Shown here piece by piece: positions 691 through 64,000 of a stretch of DNA of 64,000 bases. The stretch lies in the IMG/VR virus record IMGVR_UViG_3300033273_000833, positions 64,001-128,000 of that record; one strand, given 5' to 3'. A program made the position numbers and the translations under genes. Position 1 is the first letter of the stretch, and each line of letters begins with the position of its first letter. The notes under the pieces are model-generated. The model was given only the letters and a program-made list of their open reading frames with translations. It made no database searches and was not told the DNA's origin. This DNA is from a virus (lineage: Duplodnaviria; Caudoviricetes).

Positions 691-1840
691 ACATTTTTCT
701 TTAAATTGCGGAATTAAATCATCAAAAGCCTTCATTCAAGAAGACTATATCCCCGTTCCTTTTGATCAATTTATATGCATCAATAATGACTCATCCATAG
801 ATTCGTTTACATACTCATATTGGTCAGATGTTTTTGACATAATCAAACCTTATCTAGAAAAGTCAAATATTAAAATCTTACAGATTGGTGGACCGAAAGA
901 TCAACTTCTGCCAAGCTGCGAAGATTACAGGCATATCCAAACTCGACACCAAGGAGCCTACATAATCAATAAAGCACAACTCTTTATTGGTTCAGATATT
1001 TTTTACTCAAACATCGCCTCCCATTTTGGAACCCCAGGCGTTCTCCTATACGGGCCGATACCACCATCTTGCACCAAACCATATTGGAATGAAGATAATT
1101 TTGAAATTTTATGCGAAAACGATAAGTTCTCCTACTCATCTAAAGAACTTCATAAGACAATTGATAAAATAAAACCTGAATCAATAGCAAATGCTATTCT
1201 TAAAAAATTAAAAATACCTTTTGAAAGCGATCAAAAGACAGAGTTTATAGGTCAGCTTTATGACAATAAAATATTCGAAGTCATTCCTAATTTTTCTCCC
1301 AATCCAGATTTCTTAAAAGGCTCATTTGTGACAATGAGAGCTGACTATCAAGAATCTGATGAATTCATAGGTGAGTGGTCGATTGGTCGAAAAATAAATC
1401 TCATAACTAATCGAAAAATTAATCTTGGATTAATACAAGCTATAAAAAACTCTCTACAAGTTATACATTTTGAAGTTTCTAATGACTGCAGTGAAGATGT
1501 TGTAAAAGAAAATATACAGTACTTTAAAGCAATTAAAAAACTTGGTTTAAATATCAGTCTTTTTAGAAAAGATGAAGACAATATTGCTGATCTTCGCTTA
1601 ACTTATTTTGATTGGAATGTAGAAGTTTTATCCCAGAATAAGCCTTCAGAAAATATAACTAAAAATAAAGATTTGTATTTTTATTCTGGCAAGCTGGTCT
1701 TTTCTGATGGCAAAAAATATCCCTCAATAGAGCATGCTATAAACGATCTTGACAGCGACACAGGAATAAATCGGATTGTAGATACAGATTTATTTTGGTT
1801 AGAATCAGATCATTATAGAATAATATCAAAAAAGAGTTGA
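677..1840 (+). CDS. GT9-like glycosyltransferase (C-terminal half-like domain plus unknown C-terminal extension)
   Basis: IKILQIGG...AYIINKAQLFIGSDIFYSNIASHFGTPGVLLYGP resembles the GT9 LFIGxDSGxxHxAxAxGxPxVxLFGP motif. Confidence 0.6.
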   Translation: MHILEHFSLNCGIKSSKAFIQEDYIPVPFDQFICINNDSSIDSFTYSYWSDVFDIIKPYLEKSNIKILQIGGPKDQLLPSCEDYRHIQTRHQGAYIINKAQLFIGSDIFYSNIASHFGTPGVLLYGPIPPSCTKPYWNEDNFEILCENDKFSYSSKELHKTIDKIKPESIANAILKKLKIPFESDQKTEFIGQLYDNKIFEVIPNFSPNPDFLKGSFVTMRADYQESDEFIGEWSIGRKINLITNRKINLGLIQAIKNSLQVIHFEVSNDCSEDVVKENIQYFKAIKKLGLNISLFRKDEDNIADLRLTYFDWNVEVLSQNKPSENITKNKDLYFYSGKLVFSDGKKYPSIEHAINDLDSDTGINRIVDTDLFWLESDHYRIISKKS

Positions 1841-1865
1841 CTTAGGTTGTTTTATATGCTATCAT
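1837..1865 (+). promoter_or_regulatory. sigma70-like promoter (near-leaderless)
   Basis: TTGACT-17-TATCAT; ATG at 1874. Confidence 0.7.
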
Positions 1866-1873
1866 TATAAACA

Positions 1874-2662
1874 ATGAAAAAATCAACTAAGCAAACAAAA
1901 ATAGACAACAGCCCTGGACCAAACCTTTATAGTAGAGACGAAAACGGACTACTAAAAAACCATCAGTATGAGTTCAATGAAGATGGATCAATTAACTGGA
2001 GGGCAATGATTAAAGATGAGCACCTATTCCCAAATCGATCTTGGTTTCAAACAAGAGGCAAAGATTACCCCAAGACCATCGAAGGCTTGGCGGACCATCA
2101 GTTATTAATTAAATTAAGCGGAATTAAAGAGCTGGCTAAACTACGAGGATTTTCTTCGGTTCATTATAAGACAGTCAAATGCGAAGAAAACCATGTGGCT
2201 GTTTCTTGTTCTATTACCTTTTTAGCTAACTACGAAACAAATAACGAACCCATCGTTTTTGAAGATATGGCCAATGCCACACTTAATAACACAAGCAGTT
2301 TTGCCACAAAGTTTCTTGAAACGATTGCATGCAACAGAGCCTTCGTCAGATGCGTTAGAAATTTTCTAAATGTTCATATTGTTGGAGATGACGAAATTGA
2401 TAAGTCCAATAACACCCAACAAAGTTTAACGCAAAGAGAATCAGAAGTTCAATCTAATTCTGACATCTCTCCCTCAGGAATATTAGCGAGCTTAGCTAAA
2501 GATAAATTCGGCATTAATAGCTACTCAGAATTTAAAAATAAACTGAGAGAGTTGTGGCAGAATGATTTATACAAGAACCCTGATACTAAAAATTGGTCAG
2601 ACTTCGCAGATATACCCCCGAAAGAAGCCAGAGCTTTACTTAAAGCACTTCATTCTTCTTAA
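1874..2662 (+). CDS. Rad52/Sak-like single-strand annealing protein (putative)
   Basis: IKLSGIKELA..GFSS...VAVSCSITF...FEDMANAT...LETIACNRAFVRCVRNFLNV..VGDDEI resembles the Rad52/ERF-type core ending AETRAxxRALR. Confidence 0.5.
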   Translation: MKKSTKQTKIDNSPGPNLYSRDENGLLKNHQYEFNEDGSINWRAMIKDEHLFPNRSWFQTRGKDYPKTIEGLADHQLLIKLSGIKELAKLRGFSSVHYKTVKCEENHVAVSCSITFLANYETNNEPIVFEDMANATLNNTSSFATKFLETIACNRAFVRCVRNFLNVHIVGDDEIDKSNNTQQSLTQRESEVQSNSDISPSGILASLAKDKFGINSYSEFKNKLRELWQNDLYKNPDTKNWSDFADIPPKEARALLKALHSS

Positions 2663-2698
2663 TTAAGTGTAATTTATAGAGTTCTTTGATAAATTTAT

Positions 2699-3062
2699 GG
2701 GCGTGTACTGGATTCGATTTAAATTGGATTAGTATACTGCAAGTAGGAGTTGCATCTGGCTCCTCAAAAAGGTGCAAACAATTACATGGCAACAAAAACC
2801 GTGTTAAAGCTTTCGGCCTTAAAGCTAAAAAGCTTGCCCTAGCAGCTTAGTTCTGCTACCTCGTAACCTTTGACGCAGATAAAAGGATTACGGGGCCATT
2901 AATCTGCAAAACAGAAAAAGTTTTCTTGCTTCACAAACTGCAAATAATTGAAACAAGAAGTTGGATGTTAATATCATAACTGTAAAAAAAATTAACTAAA
3001 CTTGTAGGCGTATATCTACAGAAAATTTAAAGACGCGGGTTCGACTCCCGCCACGTCCACCA
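2699..3062 (+). ncRNA. ssrA: tmRNA (364 nt); tag (A)GNKNRVKAFGLKAKKLALAA* at 2788..2850
   Basis: 5' GGGCGTG pairs with 3' CACGTCC-A-CCA including a G3.U wobble (Ala identity); GGATTCGA D-loop; GCGGGTTCGACTCCCGC T-arm; internal ORF ending LALAA-TAG. Confidence 0.95.
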
Positions 3063-3099
3063 AATTTATTCGCCAATCCACACTTAAACCAATTTATAT

Positions 3100-3687
3100 A
3101 TGCTTGTCAAAAAAATATTCTTAATCACCTTTCCAAATTCGTCTCGATCAAAATATTATACAGAATCAAATTCTCATTCCAAAAAGCATTTGACTTTTTT
3201 TAATGCCATTGATACCAGAGAAGACCCTCTAGGCTTTTGCTCAAAATATGGCATCAAGATCAACATAATGGAAAAATGGAAAAAATATTTTTTGTCAAAT
3301 AGTGGTTCATTTGGCTGCACAATTTCGCATGTAGAGCTTTGGAAAAAAATATCATCAATGAAAAAAGGAGATTTTGTCTGCGTTTGTGAAGACGACATAT
3401 CAGTAGATTCTCTAGAAAAATTAATTAACACAGACCTCAGGAGTATAGACTCAGATATAACTTCGGGTAAAATAATCAACATAGCAGGGTGGGCATTTGA
3501 TCTTTGTTCTGCGGGTTATTTGATTGATTCTGCTGGGGCTAAATATTTATTAAAAGAATTTAACCAAACCATTATAGCCCCTCAGGACAAATTTATGTTT
3601 CAAGTTTGCTTCAAAAAAAATCCAGAACTATTTAAATGGAATCCTGTTTTAAAATTTGCAGAACATTTTAAGAATACAACCTTGTAA
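3100..3687 (+). CDS. GT25 family glycosyltransferase
   Basis: FFNAID...GSFGCTISHVELWKKI...VCVCEDD...SAGYLI..AGAKYLL...APQD. Confidence 0.85.
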   Translation: MLVKKIFLITFPNSSRSKYYTESNSHSKKHLTFFNAIDTREDPLGFCSKYGIKINIMEKWKKYFLSNSGSFGCTISHVELWKKISSMKKGDFVCVCEDDISVDSLEKLINTDLRSIDSDITSGKIINIAGWAFDLCSAGYLIDSAGAKYLLKEFNQTIIAPQDKFMFQVCFKKNPELFKWNPVLKFAEHFKNTTL

Positions 3688-3699
3688 ATATTTTTATTT

Positions 3700-11189: not shown

Positions 11190-11993
11190 TTATTCAGGTC
11201 TTTTGCCTAAAGGTTTTCCATCTTGACCAATTTCTCCAGCCCTAATTTTGGTTGCAGAAACATTTTGAAGCTCTTTACTTAATTCAAGCTGCTCAATGTT
11301 ATATCCTACGCCTCTACCATAAAATACATCTGTAATATTTGGAAGCTCAACAACTTTAATTTTATTCCCAAACTCAATGCATGCAGAATGAATTTCTGCT
11401 TTAACTTTTTCAAAATTATATGGATTCTTTTCGTCAATTCCGCCGACATCTCTTAAAGCAATGCAGCATTGCCCAGTTCTTTTAATCGCTTCAGCAACTA
11501 ATGTTTTATGGCCAACATGAAAAGGTTGATACCTCCCAATTAATAAAGCTGTTGGAGCTTGATTATCCCAGGATTCTGTTTCATTTAATTTATTCAATAC
11601 TCTTTCAACCCATTCTTCTGGAGATCCGTCAGTTAGTCTTACGTCGTAATTCAAAGGTCTTTCAAACATTTTATTAGTGTCTTCGTATCTACCTTCCATA
11701 ATCCTATCGACCCATACAACAAAATCAGCAGCAAATGCTTTTCTTGTTTCTTGGGTAGGGCATACAAAATCGGCGACAGAGTAACCTCCGCCCATTGAAG
11801 ACCAAGAACATAGTTTACCCATTCTTTCGGCATGCTTAATTCTATCTTCTTCCGAAAACCCTAGCTCTGAATATATATCTTGCCTAACGGCATCAGCGTT
11901 AAACCAGGCTGCGTTAATTTTTTTTACTAAAATCTCAGCCAACGTTGTTTTGCCAGATCCTGGGAGCCCCATAATCAAAATTTTTCTTTTCAT
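11190..11993 (-). CDS. cysC: Adenylyl-sulfate kinase fused to a C-terminal HxGH nucleotidyltransferase domain
   Basis: GLPGSGKTT..NADAVR..LGFSEEDR..VADFVCP (APS kinase); GRYQPFHVGH..NPY..VSATKIR (NadM/Sat-type nucleotidyltransferase). Confidence 0.85.
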   Translation of the reverse strand: MKRKILIMGLPGSGKTTLAEILVKKINAAWFNADAVRQDIYSELGFSEEDRIKHAERMGKLCSWSSMGGGYSVADFVCPTQETRKAFAADFVVWVDRIMEGRYEDTNKMFERPLNYDVRLTDGSPEEWVERVLNKLNETESWDNQAPTALLIGRYQPFHVGHKTLVAEAIKRTGQCCIALRDVGGIDEKNPYNFEKVKAEIHSACIEFGNKIKVVELPNITDVFYGRGVGYNIEQLELSKELQNVSATKIRAGEIGQDGKPLGKRPE

Positions 11994-12015
11994 ATCTCTG
12001 TTTACACGCTTTTTT

Positions 12016-12345: not shown

Positions 12346-12574
12346 CTTGAATGCGAGGAAGAATGAACGATGTGTATTTCCTACGCACACTAGCTTTTCT
12401 GCACGAAGAACATCCTCCAGGTTTATTCACTTCTGCCAAGTAATCTTTTTTCATTTGCTGACAACCATCAAAGTTTATTTCTTGACAAGTTTGCTCGGGC
12501 GTTTTATTTAAATCCATAAATATTCTTATGAGATTCATTTGGGCTGGTGTTTTTGGATTCATTTTTCTTGACAA
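12338..12574 (-). CDS. small Cys-containing hypothetical protein
   Basis: GGCSSC motif; start may be 12562. Confidence 0.55.
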   Translation of the reverse strand: MSRKMNPKTPAQMNLIRIFMDLNKTPEQTCQEINFDGCQQMKKDYLAEVNKPGGCSSCRKASVRRKYTSFILPRIQDD

Positions 12575-12596
12575 ATTTGATTACATATATTATACT
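12568..12596 (+). promoter_or_regulatory. sigma70 promoter (leaderless)
   Basis: TTGACA-17-TATACT; ATG at 12603. Confidence 0.85.
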
Positions 12597-12602
12597 TATA
12601 AT

Positions 12603-13142
12603 ATGAAAAATATTCTAGAAAAAACTAAAACTTATCTGGTTGGCCACATGCAATACATTAGTGGGAGGAACTGGCGAGAAGAAGTTACTCAAAAGCTTTC
12701 TGATATTAACATTACATGCTTCGACCCTTATAAAAAACCCTTTATTAAAGATGTCGAAGAAGATGAGGTCTCAAGACAAGAAATGGAAACTTGGATGAAA
12801 ACCAAGCAGTACGACAGAGTAACGGAAAGAATGAAAATGGTAAGAGCTTATGACCTAAATTTAGTTGATCGTAGCGATTTTATCATCGCTCATCTAGTTC
12901 CTAGCGTTGCATCTTGGGGTAGTGCCGAAGAAATTGTTACTGCGGTAAGAATGAAAAAACCTATCTTTATCAGCATGGAAGGCGGTAAGTCCCAAACTCC
13001 ACTCTGGATGCTAGGAATGCTTCCTCATAAATACATTTACAATTCAGTAGAAGAAATAGTAGATATGCTTTTTGCTATCAATGAAGGGTCAAAAACTATA
13101 GACTCAGATCGCTGGCGCCTATTAAGACATGAATTTAGATAG
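12603..13142 (+). CDS. nucleoside 2-deoxyribosyltransferase-like protein
   Basis: YLVGHM..WREEV..FDPY..DLNLVDRSDFIIA..SWGSAEEIVTA..KKPI; start reassigned to MKNILEK at the promoter-defined ATG. Confidence 0.65.
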   Translation: MKNILEKTKTYLVGHMQYISGRNWREEVTQKLSDINITCFDPYKKPFIKDVEEDEVSRQEMETWMKTKQYDRVTERMKMVRAYDLNLVDRSDFIIAHLVPSVASWGSAEEIVTAVRMKKPIFISMEGGKSQTPLWMLGMLPHKYIYNSVEEIVDMLFAINEGSKTIDSDRWRLLRHEFR

Positions 13143-13628: not shown

Positions 13629-13657
13629 TTGACATTCTAAATAATTTTTACTATAAT
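13629..13657 (+). promoter_or_regulatory. consensus sigma70 promoter (leaderless)
   Basis: TTGACA-17-TATAAT; ATG at 13665. Confidence 0.9.
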
Positions 13658-13664
13658 TATAAAC

Positions 13665-13763
13665 ATGGATAATTCAGAATTACAAGGTTATTTTATTTTG
13701 GCTGGAGCAGTAATTTACTGCATATGTCTATGTGTCAAATATTCAGACGGAGGAAAACTATAA
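13665..13763 (+). CDS. 32-aa membrane peptide
   Basis: MDNSELQGYFILAGAVIYCICLCVKYSDGGKL*; starts at the predicted +1; TAATG-coupled to the next gene. Confidence 0.6.
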   Translation: MDNSELQGYFILAGAVIYCICLCVKYSDGGKL

Positions 13764-22873: not shown

Positions 22874-22886
22874 ATAATTATTTACA

Positions 22887-23633
22887 CTATAGTTTAAAAT
22901 TATAAGTTATTGAAATTCCTTGTTTTATATTATTTATTCTATGCCACCAAAACCTAGGTATATTTAAACTTTCGTTTTCATTTAATATTATTATATTATA
23001 TTTTATATTGTTTTTAATTAAAATCTCGGAAATTTTTGTTTTAGAATACATAGCTCCAGAATGTTTTAAATCAGAACTTTCTATAAAGTTATTATATTGA
23101 GGATCAATCAACAAGACTTCTTTTCTACCACTTATAACGCTTAGTAGGGAATGTGCTATCGGCTTCTTATAAAAGTTTTCCTTGTGAATTTGCTTAAGAG
23201 TTTGATCAATTTTATAACTATAGGAATCGTAATGCAACGGAGTGATAGTGCCCTTTCCTCCCCACCAGAATGATATTCCGCCCTCTTTACCAAAATTGTA
23301 TTTATTGACTATTTCTTTTTCGAACTCTAAAATTTTTTCAGGATCAACAAAGCCAAAAGGATTTTCCGAGCGCAGATAATATTTATTATTTTTTTTATTC
23401 ATATACTCTTTAACATATTGCTCTATAGTAATTTCAATACAATTCATTTCTTGTAAATTTGATATTTGCCTACCTTCTATTATTTCTGGCACAATAACCT
23501 TGAGTCGCCCATATTTCTTTAATATATTATCGACATTAATAATTTTACTTAATCCAAAATCATAACTTAAAAAAAATGGGTTATTCTCCTTAAACAAATC
23601 TGTAATATTGTCAATATTTTCTACATGCAACAT
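22887..23633 (-). CDS. JmjC/cupin-like Fe(II)/2OG-dependent hydroxylase
   Basis: FWWGGKGTITPLHYD..SGRKEVLL..LNIPRFWWHRINN..ISITY (HxD...H triad). Confidence 0.85.
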   Translation of the reverse strand: MLHVENIDNITDLFKENNPFFLSYDFGLSKIINVDNILKKYGRLKVIVPEIIEGRQISNLQEMNCIEITIEQYVKEYMNKKNNKYYLRSENPFGFVDPEKILEFEKEIVNKYNFGKEGGISFWWGGKGTITPLHYDSYSYKIDQTLKQIHKENFYKKPIAHSLLSVISGRKEVLLIDPQYNNFIESSDLKHSGAMYSKTKISEILIKNNIKYNIIILNENESLNIPRFWWHRINNIKQGISITYNFKL

Positions 23634-23948: not shown

Positions 23949-24028
23949 ATTTTTTTTTACACTCAAACAACTAAAATTTTTTTTCGACGGATTTTTGAAT
24001 CACAGTGGACGATATACAAAAATAATAC

Positions 24029-24057
24029 TTGACAAACCTTGCAATATTTAATATGAT
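24029..24057 (+). promoter_or_regulatory. sigma70 promoter (leaderless)
   Basis: TTGACA-17-TATGAT; ATG at 24065. Confidence 0.85.
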
Positions 24058-24064
24058 TATAAAC

Positions 24065-26953: not shown

Positions 26954-26982
26954 TTGACATTTTAATATCTTTTTAATACAAT
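26954..26982 (+). promoter_or_regulatory. sigma70 promoter (leaderless)
   Basis: TTGACA-17-TACAAT; ATG at 26989. Confidence 0.85.
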
Positions 26983-26988
26983 ATATAT

Positions 26989-44243: not shown

Positions 44244-44268
44244 CAAATAATTTAAATTCATCTATAAT
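44240..44268 (+). promoter_or_regulatory. consensus sigma70 promoter (leaderless)
   Basis: TTGACA-17-TATAAT; ATG at 44275. Confidence 0.9.
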
Positions 44269-44274
44269 ATTTAG

Positions 44275-44871
44275 ATGAATAAATTACCAAAAATTATCGG
44301 CCTAACAGGGTTTGCAACGAGCGGCAAAGACACGTTTTTTACTGCAATTAATTCTTTAGCAAAAGATATGAATCTTCCAGAAATGACAAGATTTGCCTTT
44401 GCGGATGAACTTAAACGAGAATGTGATTCATTTTTAATTGAAAATGTAGGTATATCAGCTTGGACTTCTGAAAAAAAATCTAAAGAAATAATTAGACCTT
44501 TTTTGGTTACATACGGAACTCATATCCGAAGGAAGTTAGATCAAAATTGCTGGATTAATAAAATTAAAGATTCTGTAGAAAATTGTATAGCTAATAATGA
44601 GATTCCTGTCGTAACAGATGTACGGTACGAAAACGAAGCTTTATGGGTTAAAGAACAAGAAGGTATTATTGTCCAAATAAACAGAGAGTCTATCGGACCA
44701 GCAAATAATGAAGAAGAGTCTGAAATGAAAAAGCTTTCGAATTATCAAGATTTTTCTGTAGATTGGCCTACATTCGGCGCCGATAATCTATCAGAATGTA
44801 TGGGCTTCGCTAGATCCTTTTTGTCTCAATTAGGCTCAAGCATGGCAGTGGAATCTAATGCTTTTACCTAA
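44275..44871 (+). CDS. deoxynucleoside monophosphate kinase
   Basis: IIGLTGFATSGKDT..FADELK..R.FLV.YGT..R..VTDVRYENE. Confidence 0.85.
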   Translation: MNKLPKIIGLTGFATSGKDTFFTAINSLAKDMNLPEMTRFAFADELKRECDSFLIENVGISAWTSEKKSKEIIRPFLVTYGTHIRRKLDQNCWINKIKDSVENCIANNEIPVVTDVRYENEALWVKEQEGIIVQINRESIGPANNEEESEMKKLSNYQDFSVDWPTFGADNLSECMGFARSFLSQLGSSMAVESNAFT

Positions 44872-45525: not shown

Positions 45526-45554
45526 TTGATATTTGCCAAATAAAGAGTTATAAT
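45526..45554 (+). promoter_or_regulatory. sigma70-like promoter (leaderless)
   Basis: TTGATA-17-TATAAT; ATG at 45562. Confidence 0.8.
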
Positions 45555-45561
45555 TTATAAC

Positions 45562-45783
45562 ATGAACAATAAATTCCTATCTATTCTTGAATATTCTTTA
45601 AATAAGTTTATGCCATATGTTTTAATTAGTTTTTTAGTGTTTTTTGAATTTGGATTTTATAAAGTTCAACCATACATAATCATGGGGCTATTGTGTTTTC
45701 TAGACAAACATTCTTTCAGAGTTGGGTACGCAGTAGCTCTTTGCGAACAAAAAGGTATCGATCTTGAGAAATGGGAAGAATAA
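45562..45783 (+). CDS. small membrane protein
   Basis: 73 aa, hydrophobic core. Confidence 0.6.
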   Translation: MNNKFLSILEYSLNKFMPYVLISFLVFFEFGFYKVQPYIIMGLLCFLDKHSFRVGYAVALCEQKGIDLEKWEE

Positions 45784-51118: not shown

Positions 51119-51147
51119 TTGATTTTTCGCAAATAATATGGTATATT
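51119..51147 (+). promoter_or_regulatory. sigma70-like promoter (leaderless)
   Basis: TTGATT-17-TATATT with upstream TG; ATG at 51155. Confidence 0.7.
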
Positions 51148-51154
51148 TATACCC

Positions 51155-51559
51155 ATGTATTTAGGTAGTCACGAATTAGTTGAATTTTATAATTGCGATG
51201 AAGATATTTTAAAAGATTCTGATTTAATAAAAAGAATATTTATTGAGTCTGCTAAACTGGGTAATGCAAATATAGTTAATAGTCTATTTCATTCTTTCAG
51301 TCCGTATGGGGTCACAGGAGTCTTAGTGATTGCAGAAAGTCATATGAGTATTCATACATGGCATGAATTTAATTATTGTGCCGTTGATATATTTTCTTGT
51401 TGCGATAAATTAAATAATAAAATTGTTTTAGAAGACTTAAAAGACAAACTATTCAGCAGTAGATATGAATCAAAACTAATTAATAGGGGGAATAAATATA
51501 TTATCGAACAAAGTGCAAATAAAAAGTTGACAAATAAACAAAAATCTGTCATTATATAA
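51155..51559 (+). CDS. speD: S-adenosylmethionine decarboxylase proenzyme (canonical E-SH)
   Basis: LGSHELVEFY.C..HSFSPYGVTGVLVIAESHMSIHTWHE..AVDIFSC. Confidence 0.93.
   Translation: MYLGSHELVEFYNCDEDILKDSDLIKRIFIESAKLGNANIVNSLFHSFSPYGVTGVLVIAESHMSIHTWHEFNYCAVDIFSCCDKLNNKIVLEDLKDKLFSSRYESKLINRGNKYIIEQSANKKLTNKQKSVII
51527..51555 (+). promoter_or_regulatory. sigma70-like promoter (leaderless)
   Basis: TTGACA-17-CATTAT; ATG at 51562. Confidence 0.75.
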
Positions 51560-51561
51560 AC

Positions 51562-51822
51562 ATGGTAATTAGAAAAGAATTAAAAAACGCCACTTTTGAA
51601 TACGATGAAGAGAAAAAAATATTCACCATTATGGAAGCTGATGGTTTTAATGGTTATATTGAATTAAATAAAATTTATGCTTTTTCTTTTATGCGTTTTG
51701 TAATCAGAATGGCTCAGAGAAATTGGCTAAAAAGTGCAGATTCTTTTAATAAAACTGAAGAACTTTTAGACTCTATTGAAGAGGAAGAAGATAATCCAAA
51801 TCAATTAGAGCTTTTTAATTAA
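51562..51822 (+). CDS. hypothetical protein
   Basis: 86 aa, acidic tail. Confidence 0.65.
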   Translation: MVIRKELKNATFEYDEEKKIFTIMEADGFNGYIELNKIYAFSFMRFVIRMAQRNWLKSADSFNKTEELLDSIEEEEDNPNQLELFN

Positions 51823-52020: not shown

Positions 52021-52063
52021 AATTTTATTTGACAAACCCACGCTTCTGTGCAATGCTTATTAC

Positions 52064-52240
52064 ATGATGAAAACAGAATATATCAAACTTACAGACTTGT
52101 GGAACGAAGGCGAATACGCTCAAGTAGGAAATATTATTAACGAAGAAAATTGGAGTGCATCAAGGGTTGCTGAATTCTGTGCGTACTTCAATAAATATCT
52201 TGGAGTAAATCAATTAAATCTTTTATATAAGTTTTTATAA
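52064..52240 (+). CDS. hypothetical protein (58 aa), absent from the track
   Basis: MMKTEYIKLTDLWNEG..VAEFCAYFNKYLG...; TTGACA at 52029 at the standard spacing. Confidence 0.65.
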   Translation: MMKTEYIKLTDLWNEGEYAQVGNIINEENWSASRVAEFCAYFNKYLGVNQLNLLYKFL

Positions 52241-52850: not shown

Positions 52851-52879
52851 TTGACAATTACTAATTTTAACTTTAGATT
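52851..52879 (+). promoter_or_regulatory. sigma70 promoter (leaderless)
   Basis: TTGACA-17-TAGATT; ATG at 52886. Confidence 0.8.
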
Positions 52880-52885
52880 TATATC

Positions 52886-53818
52886 ATGGACAATAATTAC
52901 TTCGATGGTTTGATCGGGCAAGAGTGCGTCAAAAAGAAACTCTCCTTTTATTTAGATGCGTTTCACAAAACAAGCGTTTGCCCATTCCTTAATTTAGTTG
53001 GTGCAAAAGGCTTGGGTAAAACCGAATTTGCAAAAGCCTTCGCTAAAAATCTGTACAATAGAAATGGGGGCAAGCGTTCGTTCTTGGAATTAAATTGCTC
53101 TACAATTAAAAATAATGAGCAATTTTTTGAGCAAATATTCCTACCCTTAATTGCAGACAATGAGATTACAATTCTTTTTGATGAATGCCATGCTCTGCCT
53201 AAAGACTTGACAATGGCTTTTTTAACCATTTTCAATACCGAAACAAACACAAGAAAGCGTTTTGAATGGAATGAGATGACATTTGAGTTTGACTTTAGAA
53301 AACAAACTTTTATTTTCGCAACAACAGAGAGTGATAAAATATTTCCACCACTTAAAGATAGATTAACGACAATAGATTTCGATCCGTATTCTCAAGAGGA
53401 GATTGGCGAAATTATTAAAATTTGTTGCGGTAATATTTCTTTCTCCGATGAATGCATAAACGAGGTTTCTTCTACAATTAGAAGTAACGCTAGAAGTGCC
53501 GTAATGCGTTCAAGAGAGATAATGCTATATTGCGAATCTAAAGAGATTGAAAGATTTGAATCTCATCATTTTAAAGATTTGCGTGACTCTATTGGGATTT
53601 TACCTTTAGGTATTTCTCGAACAGAAAAACAAATCCTACAAATACTTAAAGAGTGTGGATCAATTAGCCTAACAGGCTTATCCGCTAAGTTAGGCTTAAG
53701 CAAGACATCCCTACAAAGAGATCACGAACTTTACTTATTGGGCAAAAATTTAATTGAAATTGATGGTAAGCGAAGAATTACTTCAAATGGAATAAAACTT
53801 TGCGAGGACTTGTCATGA
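52886..53818 (+). CDS. ruvB: Holliday junction branch migration ATPase RuvB-like
   Basis: F..LIGQE.VK..L; Walker A GAKGLGKT; Walker B LFDECH; FIFATTE..PPLKDR; C-terminal winged helix ending GKRRIT..G. Confidence 0.85.
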   Translation: MDNNYFDGLIGQECVKKKLSFYLDAFHKTSVCPFLNLVGAKGLGKTEFAKAFAKNLYNRNGGKRSFLELNCSTIKNNEQFFEQIFLPLIADNEITILFDECHALPKDLTMAFLTIFNTETNTRKRFEWNEMTFEFDFRKQTFIFATTESDKIFPPLKDRLTTIDFDPYSQEEIGEIIKICCGNISFSDECINEVSSTIRSNARSAVMRSREIMLYCESKEIERFESHHFKDLRDSIGILPLGISRTEKQILQILKECGSISLTGLSAKLGLSKTSLQRDHELYLLGKNLIEIDGKRRITSNGIKLCEDLS

Positions 53819-54185: not shown

Positions 54186-54214
54186 TTGACTTTATTCACT
54201 CTTGTTATTATAAT
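54186..54214 (+). promoter_or_regulatory. sigma70 promoter (leadered; GGAG before ATG 54238)
   Basis: TTGACT-17-TATAAT. Confidence 0.8.
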
Positions 54215-54237
54215 ATATATTTTATGGAGATAAATAA

Positions 54238-54453
54238 ATGTTTGAATATAAAATAACTTATAGAAGAAGAGGAGATATGTTATCAAACTCTCATTATTAT
54301 ATGGCATCAGATGCTCATGAAGCACTAGACTACCAACTAGAAATGATTGACCATAAAGGATGGAATATAGATATATTAAAAATAGAAAAATTTTGTAAAT
54401 ATTCTAATAAATGGATAGATGAAAGTGAAGTATTAGAGGAAGAAAATAAATGA
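54238..54453 (+). CDS. hypothetical protein
   Basis: 71 aa. Confidence 0.65.
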   Translation: MFEYKITYRRRGDMLSNSHYYMASDAHEALDYQLEMIDHKGWNIDILKIEKFCKYSNKWIDESEVLEEENK

Positions 54454-56002: not shown

Positions 56003-56031
56003 TTGACATTTTTTTTGTTTTGTCTTATGAT
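56003..56031 (+). promoter_or_regulatory. sigma70 promoter (leaderless)
   Basis: TTGACA-17-TATGAT; ATG at 56038. Confidence 0.85.
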
Positions 56032-56037
56032 TATATC

Positions 56038-57048
56038 ATGTCAGAACAAATATTAGGCTTAACTTGCATTAGTGAAGAACTAAAGGAGAAAGATAAAGTT
56101 AAATATTCCTTTAGAACTATGACTCGCAAAAGATTCAATGATTTGTGTAACTCCGAAGGTAGAGATGAAGCAATTAATCAATTATCTGAAAGAATTTTGC
56201 ACAATGTTATTGTTACTCAATATATTGTCAATCATTGCCATGCCTCAAATATTAGGCATTATCGTCTTAGTTCTGCTCTTTTTCCTCTCCTTACCGATCA
56301 GACTTTGGAAATTTCTTTGGAAGAATTGCCTCACAGAGCAAGAATCGAAAAAGGATTAGAATTTGTAGGCTTAATTGCAAAACGCTTTAATATATCAATC
56401 GGCTCTCACCCCGACCAATTCAATGTTCTCGCGTCTCCCGATAGAGACAAGGTTAGTCGCACTATAAACGAACTTAATTTCCAAGCGAGCGTTCTTGACA
56501 TGGTAGGACTACCACAAGATCATACTGCACCGATGAACATTCATGTAAACTATACTCCAAAAATGGATGAAAGTTTGGAAATAGTTGCAACTAGATTTTT
56601 TCGCAATCTTTCTATGTGCGACAAAGGTGTTTATAATCGTCTAACTATCGAGAACGAAGACAAAGGTTTCTTTAATGTAGATAATTGCATCAAATTTAGT
56701 GAATACTTGTTTGCAGTCTTCGGTGTTAATATTCCTGTTTGTTACGACAATTTGCATGACTTCTGCAACCCATCAGAAGATCATAATATTGCATTTCAAG
56801 CAGAGCGATGTGCATATACATGGGTAAATCAAGGAAGTGGTGATAACAATTTTGTTGCTCCTGTTTTTCATTGGTCAGAAGGTAAACCCGAAAAGCCTCG
56901 CTCTCATGCAGACTATTTTGCTCTTGGAAATTTTCCACCACATATCGCCATTGACCCCGATCAACCTGCCAAGTGGGAGTGTGAAGTTAAGTTAAAAGAT
57001 CAAGCGATTAAAGTATTGCGAAATAATCTAACAGAAAAAAGTGGTTGA
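56038..57048 (+). CDS. uvsE: UV DNA damage endonuclease
   Basis: LGLTCI, YRLSSALFP, HPDQFNVL, NIHV, LTIENED, YDNLH, FHWSE, HADY, ECEVKLKD. Confidence 0.93.
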   Translation: MSEQILGLTCISEELKEKDKVKYSFRTMTRKRFNDLCNSEGRDEAINQLSERILHNVIVTQYIVNHCHASNIRHYRLSSALFPLLTDQTLEISLEELPHRARIEKGLEFVGLIAKRFNISIGSHPDQFNVLASPDRDKVSRTINELNFQASVLDMVGLPQDHTAPMNIHVNYTPKMDESLEIVATRFFRNLSMCDKGVYNRLTIENEDKGFFNVDNCIKFSEYLFAVFGVNIPVCYDNLHDFCNPSEDHNIAFQAERCAYTWVNQGSGDNNFVAPVFHWSEGKPEKPRSHADYFALGNFPPHIAIDPDQPAKWECEVKLKDQAIKVLRNNLTEKSG

Positions 57049-57063: not shown

Positions 57064-58404
57064 ATGACCTTAGCTCAAAAACATCCTAAAGATAGTTATA
57101 TTTTGGAACAGCAAATTGGCATTGTTTACAAGATAACAAATAAAATTCAATTCGATCCATTTCATGAAAAGTATAAATATTTAAACGCTTGGGACTCTTG
57201 TTATATTGGATGTACAAGCCAAGACCTTAATGAGCGTTATCAAGATGGAATAGAGAATACCCATAACCATTTTCTAAAAAAAGCTATCGAATTGTATGGT
57301 AAAGAAAATTTTGATATTGAAGTTTTAGAAGAAAAAATTCGGTTTGTAGATTTACTAAGAAGAGAGCGTTATTATATTCAATTAAATAATTGTATATATC
57401 CCAATGGATATAACATAAGAGAAGGTTCTGAATCTGATAATTCTAGCCATAGACGCAAAAAAGAGTCTCACATCAGAAACATTAAAACTAATAATGTTTT
57501 TTCTATTAAAAACCTTAAACATTTTTGCAAAAATCCAAGTTTATACGATAAATCCATTGATGAAAATTTAAAAATAAATTATACACAGATGTCTAATGCT
57601 CTCACAGGTTATGTAGAGCCTAAACACAAAAAGAAAGGATATGACTTACCTCACCAAATAATCGTTTCCGAAACTTATTGCTCGGCTAAACACACAAATA
57701 AAGATTTAGAAAATTTCAAACAATACCTGTATAAAAAAAGTATAGAAGAGTTTGCGGATAAATTAATATTCCCGATTGAATTAATAAATTTTAAAAATTT
57801 TAATATAATTAAAATTAAGGATGAACTTGCATTCGCCCATTTCATAATTAATAATCCTGAAATTTCCTTATCGAAATTGAAGCGAATTTTTTCAACCGAT
57901 AAAAGTGGGTATAAACGCTCAAAATATTCTAATCATGATCTTATCTTAAAAGAAAATTTTAAAAAAAACAATCAATGGCATAAATATGACATTAATGGTG
58001 AACCTGCTAAATTCACTCTAATTCACAAAAAAAGTGGAGATACAGAAACATTTACTTGGCAAGAGCTTGAAGCATTAGCTCAAAAACTATACTTAAAATC
58101 ATATGCTAGTATTGGTCTGAAAAATCACATAAGCCACATAAAAGATGTTGCACATTCAACTTTTGGTCGATCCATTAGAAAACTTTTGACAGGAGAGTTA
58201 AAAATATGTTATGGATACAAACTTGATGAATCTAATTTACCTTTTAAATTAAGAATAAAAAGATTTACGACAAATAAGTATGTTAAAAAAGTTTTAGACT
58301 TAGGTTATGCCGTTAGATTTAAAAATTTACCAACAGATTCTAAAGAGGAAGTTAAAATGACAAAAAAAATTCTTGATCTTCTTGACATTCCTTTCTTTTT
58401 ATGA
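57064..58404 (+). CDS. GIY-YIG homing endonuclease-like protein (free-standing)
   Basis: GIVYKITNK..YIGCT..RY..L..AI..YG..NF..E.YYI..PNGYN followed by basic repeated DNA-binding-like modules. Confidence 0.8.
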   Translation: MTLAQKHPKDSYILEQQIGIVYKITNKIQFDPFHEKYKYLNAWDSCYIGCTSQDLNERYQDGIENTHNHFLKKAIELYGKENFDIEVLEEKIRFVDLLRRERYYIQLNNCIYPNGYNIREGSESDNSSHRRKKESHIRNIKTNNVFSIKNLKHFCKNPSLYDKSIDENLKINYTQMSNALTGYVEPKHKKKGYDLPHQIIVSETYCSAKHTNKDLENFKQYLYKKSIEEFADKLIFPIELINFKNFNIIKIKDELAFAHFIINNPEISLSKLKRIFSTDKSGYKRSKYSNHDLILKENFKKNNQWHKYDINGEPAKFTLIHKKSGDTETFTWQELEALAQKLYLKSYASIGLKNHISHIKDVAHSTFGRSIRKLLTGELKICYGYKLDESNLPFKLRIKRFTTNKYVKKVLDLGYAVRFKNLPTDSKEEVKMTKKILDLLDIPFFL

Positions 58405-58410
58405 GAGTAT
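58382..58410 (+). promoter_or_regulatory. sigma70-like promoter (leaderless)
   Basis: TTGACA-17-GAGTAT with upstream TG; ATG at 58417. Confidence 0.65.
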
Positions 58411-58416
58411 ATTTGT

Positions 58417-58899
58417 ATGGACATTAAAATAATAGATGGAAATCTTCTTGATTTTCCTAATGATATAGATTTCATTGCTCACTCTTGCAATACACATAAT
58501 GTTATGGGAGCAGGAATTGCTAGAGCAATAAAAGATCGCTACCCTAAAGCCTATGAAGCTGATTGTCATGCAATGTACGAAGGTGCTAATATTTTAGGGG
58601 ATTATAGTTTTTCAGTAACAGATGCTACTCAAAATAAAGGCATTTATAATATGTATACGCAATCTAAGATTGGAGACAAAAGATCAGTTAATTATGAAGC
58701 ATTTTATGTTGCATTAAATAAAGTGGCAGGTCATATTGAATGGCAATCCAAGCATGAAGATGAAGAAAAGATTCTAGGTTTACCTTGGATGATCTCTTGT
58801 GGACTCGCAGGTGGAAGTTGGAATGTAATTTTTTCAATGATAAATGATATTTTGATTGACAGGTGCTTCAAAACCTTTATAGTTAAATATGATGAATAA
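58417..58899 (+). CDS. macro domain (ADP-ribose-binding/hydrolase) protein
   Basis: IDGNLL..IAHSCN..MGAGIA..I..RYP..NMYTQ..LP.ISCGLAGGSW. Confidence 0.85.
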   Translation: MDIKIIDGNLLDFPNDIDFIAHSCNTHNVMGAGIARAIKDRYPKAYEADCHAMYEGANILGDYSFSVTDATQNKGIYNMYTQSKIGDKRSVNYEAFYVALNKVAGHIEWQSKHEDEEKILGLPWMISCGLAGGSWNVIFSMINDILIDRCFKTFIVKYDE

Positions 58900-59520: not shown

Positions 59521-59549
59521 TTGACTTTTATATTAGTCTACTTTAGTCT
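59521..59549 (+). promoter_or_regulatory. sigma70-like promoter (leaderless)
   Basis: TTGACT-17-TAGTCT; ATG at 59556. Confidence 0.75.
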
Positions 59550-59555
59550 TTAATT

Positions 59556-60143
59556 ATGAGCGGAGAAGGTTTATCAGTTAGTTTTAGAAGAACATCCTTT
59601 ACGGATAAGTCTAATGCAGAACTCCTTAAGGAGTTTCAAAAGATCATCTACAATAGTAGAGTCATGAGACATATGAAATGGTATGGCAAACTTCATAGCG
59701 TTGACATACTAGAGCATGGTGACGACAACCGACCAAAATTTCAACAAGAATATGTTGCAATTAAAGACACTTTTCAATTTGAGATTAGTGTTTATGATTC
59801 TTGGTACGAAGATGCCGATCTTTATGAGTCGCATGAAGTAGAAGATAGTTTTGTGTCTCTTGCTTTTAAGTTCGCCAAAGATAACAACTTGATGTATTTT
59901 TCCCAAGGTTTTCCTGCTGAATGGATAGAGACAGAAACTACTGATGGAGAAAGATGTTGGAATCATTATAATGTAAAACCCGATGATAAAAACATTGACA
60001 AAATATGTAAAGTATGGCATGATTATGGTATGAAAATGATTCAAGCAGAACAATGTGGTCAAGCTGACGAAATGAAAAGTTATTATTGGGCAAATGCAAG
60101 AGATCAAATAAAAGAATTAATGGAATATGAATATGCAAAATAG
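59556..60143 (+). CDS. hypothetical protein
   Basis: 195 aa. Confidence 0.7.
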   Translation: MSGEGLSVSFRRTSFTDKSNAELLKEFQKIIYNSRVMRHMKWYGKLHSVDILEHGDDNRPKFQQEYVAIKDTFQFEISVYDSWYEDADLYESHEVEDSFVSLAFKFAKDNNLMYFSQGFPAEWIETETTDGERCWNHYNVKPDDKNIDKICKVWHDYGMKMIQAEQCGQADEMKSYYWANARDQIKELMEYEYAK

Positions 60144-60498: not shown

Positions 60499-60641
60499 TG
60501 AAGCAAAAATCAAATGGAAATGGTAAAGGTGATTCGCCTAGAAACAATACTTCAAAAAAATTTAAAGACAATTATTCTAAAATAAATTGGAAAAAGGTGC
60601 GAGACACAAAAAAATATCTTGACAAAAACAAGAATAAATAA
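60498..60641 (+). CDS. small basic phage protein (47 aa)
   Basis: GKGDSPR..FKDNYSKINW; TAATG-coupled. Confidence 0.6.
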   Translation: MKQKSNGNGKGDSPRNNTSKKFKDNYSKINWKKVRDTKKYLDKNKNK

Positions 60642-60647
60642 TATCAT
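60619..60647 (+). promoter_or_regulatory. sigma70 promoter (leaderless)
   Basis: TTGACA-17-TATCAT; ATG at 60654. Confidence 0.85.
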
Positions 60648-60653
60648 ATATAA

Positions 60654-61004
60654 ATGAAAATACAAGTAACTAATTACGGAAAAACATACACTATTGAATC
60701 TAACGAAGATCATGATGTTGAAAGTGTCGCAGATATGTTCAAGAGCTTGCTTGTAAGTATGGGATACCATCCATGCAATGTAGACGCATTATTTAATACA
60801 GAATATAAATGGTTTACCGAAGAAGAGTTAGAAGCAAACTTACAAGGTCACATTCCCGCCTCAAATAAAATAGTAAACAAGTGGTACGATGAATGTCTAA
60901 ATGAATCTAAAGAAGATAAGGATAAAAGGGTGCAAGCATGGCAAAATAATCTTTATCGCCCCGAAGATGATGACTTTGATGATTACGACATATTCAAGAC
61001 ATGA
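60654..61004 (+). CDS. hypothetical protein
   Basis: MKIQVTNYGKTYTIE..F..LL..MGYHP. Confidence 0.7.
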   Translation: MKIQVTNYGKTYTIESNEDHDVESVADMFKSLLVSMGYHPCNVDALFNTEYKWFTEEELEANLQGHIPASNKIVNKWYDECLNESKEDKDKRVQAWQNNLYRPEDDDFDDYDIFKT

Positions 61005-62148: not shown

Positions 62149-62426
62149 AAACAATACATAACACACGCAATTGCAATTATAGAAGATTTTTGCATAAAAA
62201 ATTAAAACATGGAAAAATAAGTGGTCGCTTTTATAAGTTCGTTTGTAGAAGTCATCCTTATCGTATTACAACTCGCAATATACAGCTAATTGTACGAGAA
62301 ATTCTTGATGGTAAGATGACAGAAAATAAAGCAATCCGCTTATTACAACAAGATACCCAAGAATTAAAACACCAACAAGAGTTATATAAATCCAACATTG
62401 AATGCAGAAAAAAAAATAATTCTTGA
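62145..62426 (+). CDS. basic hypothetical protein
   Basis: 93 aa. Confidence 0.55.
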   Translation: MKTIHNTRNCNYRRFLHKKLKHGKISGRFYKFVCRSHPYRITTRNIQLIVREILDGKMTENKAIRLLQQDTQELKHQQELYKSNIECRKKNNS

Positions 62427-62451
62427 CATTTATCGTTAAATATACTATTAT
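62423..62451 (+). promoter_or_regulatory. sigma70 promoter (leaderless)
   Basis: TTGACA-17-TATTAT; ATG at 62458. Confidence 0.85.
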
Positions 62452-62457
62452 TTACTT

Positions 62458-62730
62458 ATGCCTTATATAGCAAAATCAGAAAAAGAAAAAATAGACAAGG
62501 GCTTATTAGCTTTGCATCTATCAGAATTTACTAACGCAGGAGCATTAAACTATGCGATTCATCAAGTAATTGCACAATATATTTCACAAAATAAGGAAAG
62601 CTACCAAACATACAATGATATTGTTGGGGTTTTAGATTGTGCAAAAATGGAATTATATCGCAGATTAATATCAGAATATGAGGATAAGAAAATGACTCAA
62701 AATAAAGATGTTGCTCCATACGAAAATTAA
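62458..62730 (+). CDS. conserved phage hypothetical protein
   Basis: MPYI..GALNYAI..Y..YNDIVGVL.CAKMELYRR..YEDKK..N.DV. Confidence 0.75.
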   Translation: MPYIAKSEKEKIDKGLLALHLSEFTNAGALNYAIHQVIAQYISQNKESYQTYNDIVGVLDCAKMELYRRLISEYEDKKMTQNKDVAPYEN

Positions 62731-63250: not shown

Positions 63251-63253
63251 ATA

Positions 63254-63457
63254 ATGAAAGAAATAATAATTAAAGTTTTAAAAAATTTTGCTGACTTACA
63301 AGCGAACTTAGAATCAGAGTCGGCAAGAGAAATGATTGCAACAGAAATAGAACTTAATTTAATAAAAAATAATGTTAATTTAAGTATTGATTCCTTGGAG
63401 CAAATTTGCGAGGATAAAAATTCCGATGATTGTTGTGGGGGTAATTGTCATCAATGA
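63254..63457 (+). CDS. hypothetical protein with a C-terminal CCGGNC motif
   Basis: 67 aa. Confidence 0.6.
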   Translation: MKEIIIKVLKNFADLQANLESESAREMIATEIELNLIKNNVNLSIDSLEQICEDKNSDDCCGGNCHQ

Positions 63458-63545
63458 TCTGTTTAAACTATAAGGGGTTAAAGATTATAGAAGACCTTCA
63501 CAAGTTGCGAGCAGAAACGAAAGTTCCCAAGCAGAAAAAAAAGTC

Positions 63546-63574
63546 TTGACATATTACTCTTGTTGGCTCATACT
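63546..63574 (+). promoter_or_regulatory. sigma70 promoter (leaderless)
   Basis: TTGACA-17-CATACT; ATG at 63581. Confidence 0.8.
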
Positions 63575-63580
63575 TAAACC

Positions 63581-63832
63581 ATGAGCAAAAATAGAAACAA
63601 AGAGTTGGTTGAAGAAATTAAAGAAATGAACCCCGAAGCAATGTTTGCTGATGGGTTCGATGATTCTATCCTTGGTTATGATACTAAAGGTAGAGTTGTG
63701 TACTCTGTTGATTCCATTCTTGAAACTCTCACAGAAAGAGACGAAATGAGCGTAGAGGAAGCTCAAGAATATTTTTATTTTAATATTGATGGAGCTTTTG
63801 TTGGCGAATATACTCCAATTTACATCTATTAA
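63581..63832 (+). CDS. conserved phage hypothetical protein
   Basis: ADGFDD.ILG..VVYS..EEAQEYF.FNI.GA.VGE.TPI. Confidence 0.75.
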   Translation: MSKNRNKELVEEIKEMNPEAMFADGFDDSILGYDTKGRVVYSVDSILETLTERDEMSVEEAQEYFYFNIDGAFVGEYTPIYIY

Positions 63833-63835
63833 TAC

Positions 63836-63864
63836 TTGACAATAACAAAAAACTAAACTAGGAT
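63836..63864 (+). promoter_or_regulatory. sigma70 promoter (leaderless)
   Basis: TTGACA-17-TAGGAT; ATG at 63871. Confidence 0.8.
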
Positions 63865-63870
63865 TATAAC

Positions 63871-64000
63871 ATGAAAACATACGAAGTAGAAATGGCAAGT
63901 ACGACATATCGTACTTTTGAAGTTGAAGCAGATTCACCCGAAGATGCTCAAAATAAAGCGTTCCTTGAGCTAGATGCTGATTGGGAGATTAGTAAAGCGT
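63871..64000 (+). CDS. 3'-truncated hypothetical protein
   Basis: MKTYEVEMASTTYRTFEVEADSPEDAQNKA... runs off the window. Confidence 0.6.
   Translation, partial: MKTYEVEMASTTYRTFEVEADSPEDAQNKAFLELDADWEISKA

Follow-up and report, generated by a model that had tools for sequence, protein, structure and literature searches.

Host-type promoters predicted to start messengers on the start codon in an uncultured marine phage and its relatives

The window analyzed here is a stretch of 64,000 nucleotides (positions 64,001 to 128,000 of IMG/VR record IMGVR_UViG_3300033273_000833) from the 203-kb genome of an uncultured marine phage with many relatives. It contains a series of promoters of the host type, with a -35 box, a spacer and a -10 box, most of which are followed within a few nucleotides by the ATG of a gene. 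An earlier note on this DNA had listed 19 of these promoters, and all 19 could be read as described: the gap between the -10 box and the ATG is 6 nt in 13 of them, 7 nt in four and 8 nt in one, and the remaining one, at 54186, is indeed an exception with a leader. The list was nonetheless incomplete, as one likely unit with a 5-nt gap (ATG 58889) and an ambiguous one at 42951 had been missed. The promoters are given below, from the -35 box to the ATG.

1837..1876, plus strand: TTGACT-N17-TATCAT, 8-nt gap, ATG 1874 (262 aa)
12568..12605, plus strand: TTGACA-N17-TATACT, 6-nt gap, ATG 12603 (179 aa, nucleoside deoxyribosyltransferase-like), which supersedes the longer ORF start at 12528
13629..13667, plus strand: TTGACA-N17-TATAAT, 7-nt gap, ATG 13665 (mini-ORF of 32 aa, then a gene with GGAGG)
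24029..24067, plus strand: TTGACA-N17-TATGAT, 7-nt gap, ATG 24065 (101 aa); the ORF start was earlier placed on the TTG of the -35 box
26954..26991, plus strand: TTGACA-N17-TACAAT, 6-nt gap, ATG 26989 (68 aa)
44240..44277, plus strand: TTGACA-N17-TATAAT, 6-nt gap, ATG 44275 (198 aa, dNMP-kinase-like); arrangement common to three relatives
45526..45564, plus strand: TTGATA-N17-TATAAT, 7-nt gap, ATG 45562 (73 aa)
51119..51157, plus strand: TTGATT-N17-TATATT, 7-nt gap, ATG 51155 (134 aa, AdoMet decarboxylase, Pfam match from residue 6)
51527..51564, plus strand: TTGACA-N17-CATTAT, 6-nt gap, ATG 51562 (86 aa); promoter within the 3′ end of the upstream ORF, 2 nt from its stop to the ATG
52029..52066, plus strand: TTGACA-N17-AATGCT, 6-nt gap, ATG 52064 (58 aa)
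52851..52888, plus strand: TTGACA-N17-TAGATT, 6-nt gap, ATG 52886 (310 aa, AAA/RuvB-like)
54186..54240, plus strand: TTGACT-N17-TATAAT, the leadered exception, with 23 nt including GGAG before ATG 54238
56003..56040, plus strand: TTGACA-N17-TATGAT, 6-nt gap, ATG 56038 (336 aa, UvdE endonuclease)
58382..58419, plus strand: TTGACA-N17-GAGTAT, 6-nt gap, ATG 58417 (160 aa, macro domain); promoter within the homing-endonuclease ORF 57064-58404, at its 3′ end
58856..58891, plus strand: TTGACA-N16-TATAGT, 5-nt gap, ATG 58889 (72 aa)
59521..59558, plus strand: TTGACT-N17-TAGTCT, 6-nt gap, ATG 59556 (195 aa)
60619..60656, plus strand: TTGACA-N17-TATCAT, 6-nt gap, ATG 60654 (116 aa)
62423..62460, plus strand: TTGACA-N17-TATTAT, 6-nt gap, ATG 62458 (90 aa); -35 box overlapping the upstream ORF at its end
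63546..63583, plus strand: TTGACA-N17-CATACT, 6-nt gap, ATG 63581 (83 aa)
63836..63873, plus strand: TTGACA-N17-TAGGAT, 6-nt gap, ATG 63871

A strict form of the pattern, TTGAC-N19-A-N3-T-N6-ATG, is found 14 times in the window, always on the plus strand, compared to 0.15 ± 0.41 expected per window; none of 100 dinucleotide shuffles reaches 14. One of these matches (59995) lies in frame within a gene. The series runs on for about 24 kb beyond the window, and the whole genome holds around 40 promoter-ATG units. Genome-wide, plus-strand TTGAC-to-ATG distances peak at 35 nt (n = 27) and 36 nt (n = 12) over a background of around 4-5, and the minus strand has no peak. Generic scans are undiscriminating in such AT-rich DNA, for promoters (109 sites compared to 106 in shuffles) as well as for terminators (6 compared to 7.5). 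A Bacteroidota-type promoter (TTG ... TAnnTTTG) was rejected by eye, since the -10 boxes do not fit it.

Genome-wide we collected 48 candidate sites, of which around 40 match called gene starts and a few are intragenic false positives (for example 53213, 60030 and, on the minus strand, 19893 of the window). With a 17-nt spacer, the gap is 6 nt in 25 of these units and 7 nt in 11. Scanning for promoters without requiring an ATG gives the same picture, with 18 gaps of 6 nt, 10 of 7 nt and a few of 8-10 nt. Overall, gap lengths fall into two groups, 5-8 nt or around 21-36 nt, with only a handful in between, and five of the eight long-gap promoters carry a GGA, GGAG or AGGAGG motif in the leader. 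Start sites of RNA polymerase usually prefer a pyrimidine at -1 and a purine at +1. Taking the A of the ATG as +1, 40 of the 48 sites have a pyrimidine (C or T) at -1, and codon 2 begins with A in 35 of them.

The units also differ from the genes that follow them. All 40 begin with ATG, compared to 122 of 143 downstream genes, and a Shine-Dalgarno-like motif of at least 4 bases precedes one of the 40, compared to 27 of the 143, in keeping with the earlier statement that there is no room for a Shine-Dalgarno at these sites. The predicted 5′ ends are rich in A and fold weakly (-1.76 kcal/mol compared to -4.72 kcal/mol for internal windows). Stop-start overlaps among downstream genes, likewise pointed out before, are real: 35 of the 143 share 4 nt with the preceding gene, and 13 share 1 nt with it.

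The idea that the spacing corrects many ORF starts holds for three ORFs of the window only (12528 to 12603, 24029/24053 to 24065 and 56020 to 56038); elsewhere, among the sites that were checked, no earlier in-frame start precedes the ATG. Alternatively, the true starts could lie farther downstream and the intervening region be a leader, as some units have another in-frame start 1-8 codons on (52064, 58889, 52886 and 63581). Mostly, though, the next in-frame start is 15-44 codons off, and none of the downstream candidates seen has a Shine-Dalgarno. Furthermore, the Pfam domains of UvdE, AdoMet decarboxylase and the RuvB-like protein start at residues 5-9, and tblastn matches to relatives at residues 1-6, which makes misplaced starts scarcely credible. 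On these comparisons the called ATGs are the right start codons, because the domains begin so early and the ATG is the first in-frame start at most of the sites checked.

The arrangement is conserved in relatives. For example, the orthologue of UvdE keeps the geometry in 45 of 50 relatives (59-92% protein identity), with spacer sequences that are unrelated, and in the pooled relatives the TTGAC-to-ATG distance is 35 nt in 111 cases and 36 nt in 66, over a background of around 5. Since the distances are kept and the spacers and flanks differ completely, the pattern points to purifying selection on geometry rather than recent copying; judged from these alignments, the promoter-ATG geometry is under selection. 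Not every promoter is old in the family: that of the AAA/RuvB-like gene (52886) is found only in the three closest relatives, and in the other relatives listed the gene adjoins its upstream neighbor without such a promoter, often with a stop-start overlap. This case, together with the insertion of a homing endonuclease that brings the promoter of the next gene, would suit a shuffled cassette, comparable to the promoter-early stem-loop modules of T4-type phages, in which promoter and ATG form the boundary and the fixed spacing reflects common descent of the copies. Such a mobile module is nonetheless very unlikely as a general explanation, given that the copies, around 40 in number, have wholly different spacers and flanks, as orthologous promoters also do, and the distances remain. 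A search for cultured relatives by DNA and protein in a phage collection returned distant tail-protein matches only.

One captured gene points to a marine Opitutales bacterium (Verrucomicrobiota) as the probable host; the tmRNA was uninformative in this respect, as Opitutales genomes match its last 31 nt only. The promoter-ATG pattern is faint in the probable host genome and far denser in the phage. If the host assignment is right, the spacing is thus not the host norm, and the claim that it is specific to the phage stands. The tRNA genes of the probable host have promoters of the form TTGAC(A/T)-N16-TAnnnT, so the phage promoters should be recognized by the host polymerase. We found no Shine-Dalgarno peak in the probable host genome.

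Motifs, spacing, statistics and conservation are direct observations on the DNA; from them we infer where transcription would start and how ribosomes would load. Our preferred explanation, which we consider probable, is that around 40 promoters of housekeeping-sigma type start mRNAs on the ATG, giving leaderless first genes with followers coupled by stop-start overlaps. A typical unit would consist of an A-rich upstream stretch, TTGACA, a 17-nt spacer, TAnnnT and a T/A-rich gap of 6-7 nt ending in C or T, so placed that the normal start base of RNA polymerase would be the A of the gene's ATG. For this phage and its relatives, the start point is predicted from this promoter rule. With the A of the ATG at +1, the messenger would begin with AUG and have no leader and no Shine-Dalgarno, and ribosomes would load on the 5′-terminal AUG, as in other leaderless mRNAs. 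The later genes of each unit would be translated by stop-start coupling (ATGA or TAATG overlaps) and, in around one fifth of the cases, from a Shine-Dalgarno-like motif.

The main rival is genome compaction with dual use of the same DNA. The genes would mainly be internal cistrons of read-through transcripts, translated without a Shine-Dalgarno from unstructured A/U-rich RNA; this initiation region would be supplied by the AT-rich promoter itself, the ATG would sit beside the -10 box through tight packing, and leaderless transcripts would be a minor by-product. Packing is certainly tight: in 23 of the 48 units the ATG follows the upstream stop by at most 60 nt or falls within the ORF before it, which leaves no room for a terminator, and several promoters lie within the upstream ORF. 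About half of the promoter-headed genes are therefore probably present on longer transcripts too, as internal cistrons. The missing Shine-Dalgarno peak in the probable host is consistent with such initiation, as are the reported scarcity of Shine-Dalgarno motifs in some Verrucomicrobia (PMC10783764) and the AAA gene, which in relatives would be expressed without a promoter or Shine-Dalgarno of its own. However, compaction alone leaves unexplained the exact gap of 6-7 nt, the pyrimidine at -1, the fact that ATG alone serves as start codon, the small number of intermediate leaders and the geometry kept across diverged spacers. We therefore regard it as improbable as the whole account and retain leaderless initiation at the promoter-headed genes.

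Four sequencing runs labeled metatranscriptomic consist of contigs flagged as probably DNA, and none of the listed runs with this stretch is recorded as RNA. Over 44001-64000, some contigs start 2-6 nt past predicted starts (52066, 59561 and 59562). Other contigs span promoters (51509-52255, 59343-59666 and 60358-60938). As contig ends cannot show RNA ends, contig starts were set aside as evidence.

A second class of putative promoters is marked by GTGTAA. Three copies in the window head minus-strand genes:

11991..12007, minus strand: GTGTAA, 8 nt, ATG, at the head of the glycan operon on this strand
22871..22887, minus strand: GTGTAA, 8 nt, ATG, at the head of the tail-tip gene 21674-22873
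23946..23962, minus strand: GTGTAA, 8 nt, ATG, opening the tail gene block

The genome has 72 copies of GTGTAA, many of which begin 14-23 nt before a start codon: 16 copies begin at exactly 14 nt, none is closer, and a tail extends to 23 nt. The class has no conserved upstream element and no -35 box. The phage also encodes a Sigma70 region-2 protein, with a weak match to Sigma70_r2 (22-24 bits) and to phrog_1740 (E = 2e-4). From these features, GTGTAA is probably a phage-specific promoter read with the phage's own sigma-like protein. The motif stands ahead of late genes and never less than 8 nt from their start codons, so that a leader would be missing or very short in many late messengers as well. 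In distant relatives, one late gene has GTGTAA 36-38 nt upstream or not at all, suggesting that the geometry of this late class is less conserved.

The earlier note had further proposed that leaderless initiation could keep phage translation going when leadered host mRNA is disfavored. Its reading of the sigma70-type promoters, with the expected start on the A of the ATG and coupling downstream, agrees with our analysis; the proposed advantage over host mRNA finds no support in it. We looked for phage genes for IF1, IF3 and S21 and found none, and the probable host has no Shine-Dalgarno peak. A broader version can still be formulated, modeled on the IF2/IF3 shift proposed for phage phiYS40. 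A family of marine phages of around 200 kb, probably living on Opitutales, may have tuned both host-sigma and phage-sigma promoters to start on the start codon as a translational takeover, in which an early function would shift host initiation to 5′-terminal AUGs and favor phage over leadered host messengers. We consider this speculative and rather unlikely.

If the starts are confirmed, the phage family would provide a dense, family-wide set of leaderless mRNAs made from canonical -35/-10 promoters, in a probable host without this habit. The pattern would also give a straightforward way to call gene starts and transcription units in around 100 genomes of uncultured marine phages. The compact promoter-ATG modules could be tried out in Verrucomicrobia, where genetic tools are scarce. 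Finally, they would offer a natural system for studying how the ribosomes of a Shine-Dalgarno-poor lineage handle 5′-terminal AUGs.

A few phages and bacteria are already known to use a leaderless promoter-ATG design, the closest precedent being the Thermus thermophilus phage phiYS40. This phage reportedly has no polymerase or sigma of its own, and its leaderless promoters are said to have a -10-like element only, -35/-10 promoters forming the early class. By later accounts (PMC3594737, PMC12340547) of the work of Sevostyanova et al. (2007, J Mol Biol 366:420), its middle and late transcripts are leaderless, and a rise in IF2 with a drop in IF3 was proposed to favor leaderless mRNAs. On the same accounts, the two systems share a large AT-rich phage genome and a whole temporal class of transcripts that begins, here by prediction, at the start codon. 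They differ in the class concerned, for in our phage it is the full -35/-10 promoters, in a region of small early-type genes, that appear leaderless, as opposed to the middle and late promoters described for phiYS40. Our phage also has a sigma-like gene, and the pattern is rare in its probable host, a marine verrucomicrobium.

Bacteria with leaderless genes, such as Deinococcus, similarly lack a Shine-Dalgarno, place the -10 box within a few bases of the ATG and use a 5′-terminal AUG as the signal. In these bacteria the leaderless habit is host-wide, and in Deinococcus the -10 motif alone is sufficient, whereas here the promoter is a full -35/-10 promoter and the habit is that of the phage and not of its probable host. 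Compared to the promoter-early stem-loop (PeSL) cassettes of T4-type phages, we find the same abundance of strong sigma70-type early promoters heading small cassettes of short uncharacterized genes, and signs that cassettes were gained and lost as the relatives diverged. T4 early transcripts reportedly have leaders with a Shine-Dalgarno, unlike the present series, in which the ATG would sit at +1 in 18 of the 19 listed promoters of the window. The GTGTAA class in turn resembles T4 late promoters (TATAAATA, for which gp55 is the sigma) in its short motif, absence of a -35 box, putative link to a phage sigma-like protein and position ahead of late structural genes; the motif differs, it often lies exactly 8 nt before the start codon, and the sigma match is weak. 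Among large phages with mapped starts, phiKZ has no leaderless transcript and AR9 has leaders of 26-491 nt, so both differ from the leaderless design predicted here.

All 19 sigma70-type promoters listed in the earlier note, which had the ATG of the gene 6-8 nt after the -10 box in 18 of them, are present as described. The strict form of this arrangement, TTGAC-N19-A-N3-T-N6-ATG, has 14 matches in the window, each on the + strand, compared to 0.15 +/- 0.41 expected from dinucleotide shuffles. Across the + strand of the whole genome, TTGAC-to-ATG distances peak at 35 nt (n = 27) and 36 nt (n = 12) above a background of 4-5; the same genome-wide histogram has no peak on the - strand. The spacing is also found by a promoter scan for which no ATG was required: the gap between the -10 box and the ATG is 6 nt in 18 cases and 7 nt in 10, very few gaps measure 8-16 nt, and a further cluster lies at 21-36 nt. 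Outside the window, further promoter-ATG units follow as far as about 152 kb in genome coordinates. The consensus of 48 seed sites, about 40 of which coincide with called gene starts, opens with A-rich sequence, followed by cTTGACA, 17 nt, TAnnnT and 6-7 nt rich in T and A. The A of the ATG falls at the predicted +1 position; the base before it is C or T in 40 of the 48 sites, and the second codon begins with A in 35.

In about nine promoters of this type (one, at 54186, within the window and the rest beyond it) the ATG is further away, and several of these carry ATA or ATC at the position where the other promoters have ATG. GGA, GGAG or AGGAGG precedes the start codon in five of eight leadered promoters. 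This pattern of gaps and motifs means that a promoter has either no leader or one with enough room for a ribosome-binding site, as expected if transcription starts at a fixed point. A full unit also lies in frame within the gene at 59556-60143 (positions 59995-60032); it could yield a 37-aa C-terminal product or may merely be the promoter of the next gene (60127).

The start codon is ATG in all 40 units examined, while downstream genes use GTG and TTG as well. A Shine-Dalgarno-like motif of at least 4 bases is found in one of these 40 units compared to 27 of 143 downstream genes. At most sites checked in the window, no other in-frame start separates the ATG from the preceding stop codon, and in the predicted proteins the Pfam domains (UvdE, AdoMet decarboxylase, RuvB-like AAA, deoxyribosyltransferase) start at residues 5-9. 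The suggestion that the spacing corrects many gene starts was overstated because only three ORFs become shorter (12528 to 12603; 24029/24053 to 24065; 56020 to 56038). The first 40 nt of the predicted 5' ends are rich in A and fold only weakly (mean -1.76 compared to -4.72 kcal/mol for internal windows, p = 1e-10), with no difference in folding from shuffles of equal composition. Gene starts in general are typically low in structure.

Among the sequences of the viral collection are about a hundred related contigs, many of them 180-214 kb long. Upstream of the UvdE gene (ATG 56038), TTGAC(A)-N17-(-10)-N6-ATG is kept in 45 of 50 relatives (59-92% protein identity) while spacer and -10 sequences have freely diverged; the remaining five comprise three near misses and two without a promoter. 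When non-identical sites of relatives are pooled, the TTGAC-to-ATG distance is 35 nt in 111 cases and 36 nt in 66, compared with a background of about 5. For the AAA gene (ATG 52886), the promoter is confined to the three closest relatives; in the other relatives listed, the gene follows the upstream gene without such a promoter, often with a stop-start overlap. Units thus come and go as modules, with their geometry kept once present.

In many orthologous UvdE promoters (loci L056-L105), a conserved TACAC(A/T)AAAA stretch also precedes the -35 box by about 10-15 nt. A homing-endonuclease gene (446 aa, 57064-58404) separates the UvdE gene from a macro-domain gene; in relatives' contigs without it, 57041 is joined to 58423. 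The macro-domain gene's own promoter (58382-58419) falls within the 3'-terminal part of this insertion, which thereby supplies a replacement promoter to the gene downstream. Another related contig, G005:C4 (210,818 bp; loci L200-L205), is binned into a 'Cellvibrionales' genome, probably wrongly; it has 35% G+C and 12 strict matches, and its DUF1501 gene is 70% identical to that of the phage.

The DUF1501 protein of the phage (42951-44243) shares 70-82% identity with proteins encoded in marine Opitutia/Opitutales genomes (Verrucomicrobiota). From this one captured gene we infer a marine Opitutales/Verrucomicrobiota host. Sampled contigs of one such genome have scattered tRNA genes and 44% G+C, as expected of a cellular genome. 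A host that shares the spacing as its norm would make it no phage feature, and in the probable host the pattern is far sparser. Four Opitutia/Opitutales genomes (2.2-3.7 Mb) contain 3-11 strict matches compared to 4-8 for a reversed control. In 680 kb of one of them, 19 TTGAC-to-ATG distances of 35-36 nt compare with about 8 expected; the corresponding phage figures are 32 and about 2.3. The ATG-at-+1 habit is, on this inferred host assignment, the phage's and not the host's. The host sample has no Shine-Dalgarno peak, in agreement with the reported scarcity of such motifs in some Verrucomicrobia (PMC10783764). Host tRNA genes have promoters of the form TTGAC(A/T)-N16-TAnnnT, so the host polymerase should be able to read the phage promoters. 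Three Opitutales genomes do share one conserved unit (G002:C74:9365, G003:C21:3708, G004:C10:5601) whose spacer contains the palindrome TGACGTCA; this is a candidate for a leaderless gene of the host that has an operator.

The motif of a second promoter class, GTGTAA, occurs in 72 copies in the phage genome. Those copies that stand 14-23 nt before a start codon head structural, tail, glycan and nucleotide-metabolism operons. Three such sites lie in the window:

12007, - strand, GTGTAA site
22887, - strand, GTGTAA site
23962, - strand, GTGTAA site

These sites have no -35-like element. The start codon lies exactly 14 nt from the first base of the motif in 16 cases, with a tail out to 23 nt and never, genome-wide, at less than 14 nt. 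So abrupt a minimum is consistent with transcription starting 8 nt downstream of GTGTAA, which would make many late messengers leaderless too. One structural gene keeps the arrangement in 90%-identical relatives; in 47%-identical ones GTGTAA is 36-38 nt upstream or absent. A phage protein of 259 aa (genome 157543-158322; L011:9543-10322) matches Sigma70 region 2 weakly, and region 4 is not detectable in it; AGGAGG, and not a promoter-ATG unit, precedes its gene.

The stop-start overlaps reported for downstream genes are real (4 nt with the previous gene in 35 of 143, 1 nt in 13) and support translational coupling. An upstream stop lies within 60 nt of 23 of the 48 units, and some units are inside the upstream ORF, which makes nested read-through transcripts likely; on such transcripts, the same ATGs must also serve as internal, Shine-Dalgarno-less starts. 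The proposal that leaderless initiation favours the phage over leadered host mRNA, with host translation disfavoured during infection, is unsupported: a search for phage genes for S21, IF3 and IF1 found none. All sequencing runs in which this stretch occurs consist of contigs, probably of DNA.

The record comprises 203,067 bp (34% G+C; rated complete by CheckV), of which the window covers bases 64001-128000, and carries lambda-like genes for the tail tip (J and L homologues). It lacks tRNA genes and has one tmRNA gene, one-piece and full-length (2699-3062, + strand; Rfam RF00023, 130 bits), whose tag, GNKNRVKAFGLKAKKLALAA, is unusual.

We found no close cultured relative of this phage. Promoters abutting an ORF and giving leaderless mRNA are already established in bacteria, in Deinococcus-Thermus and Actinobacteria (PMC12340547, PMC3160421, PMC4633059), and in phage: a summary in PMC3594737 describes leaderless middle and late genes in Thermus phage phiYS40. 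The design predicted here differs from that of mapped large phages, namely phiKZ, with no leaderless transcript among those mapped (PMC8244752), and AR9, with leaders of 26-491 nt (PMC5312081). Notable here is that the canonical -35/-10 promoters are the predicted leaderless ones, at high density (about 260 genes have about 40 units and as many as 36 late ones), in a family-wide design that the probable host does not share.
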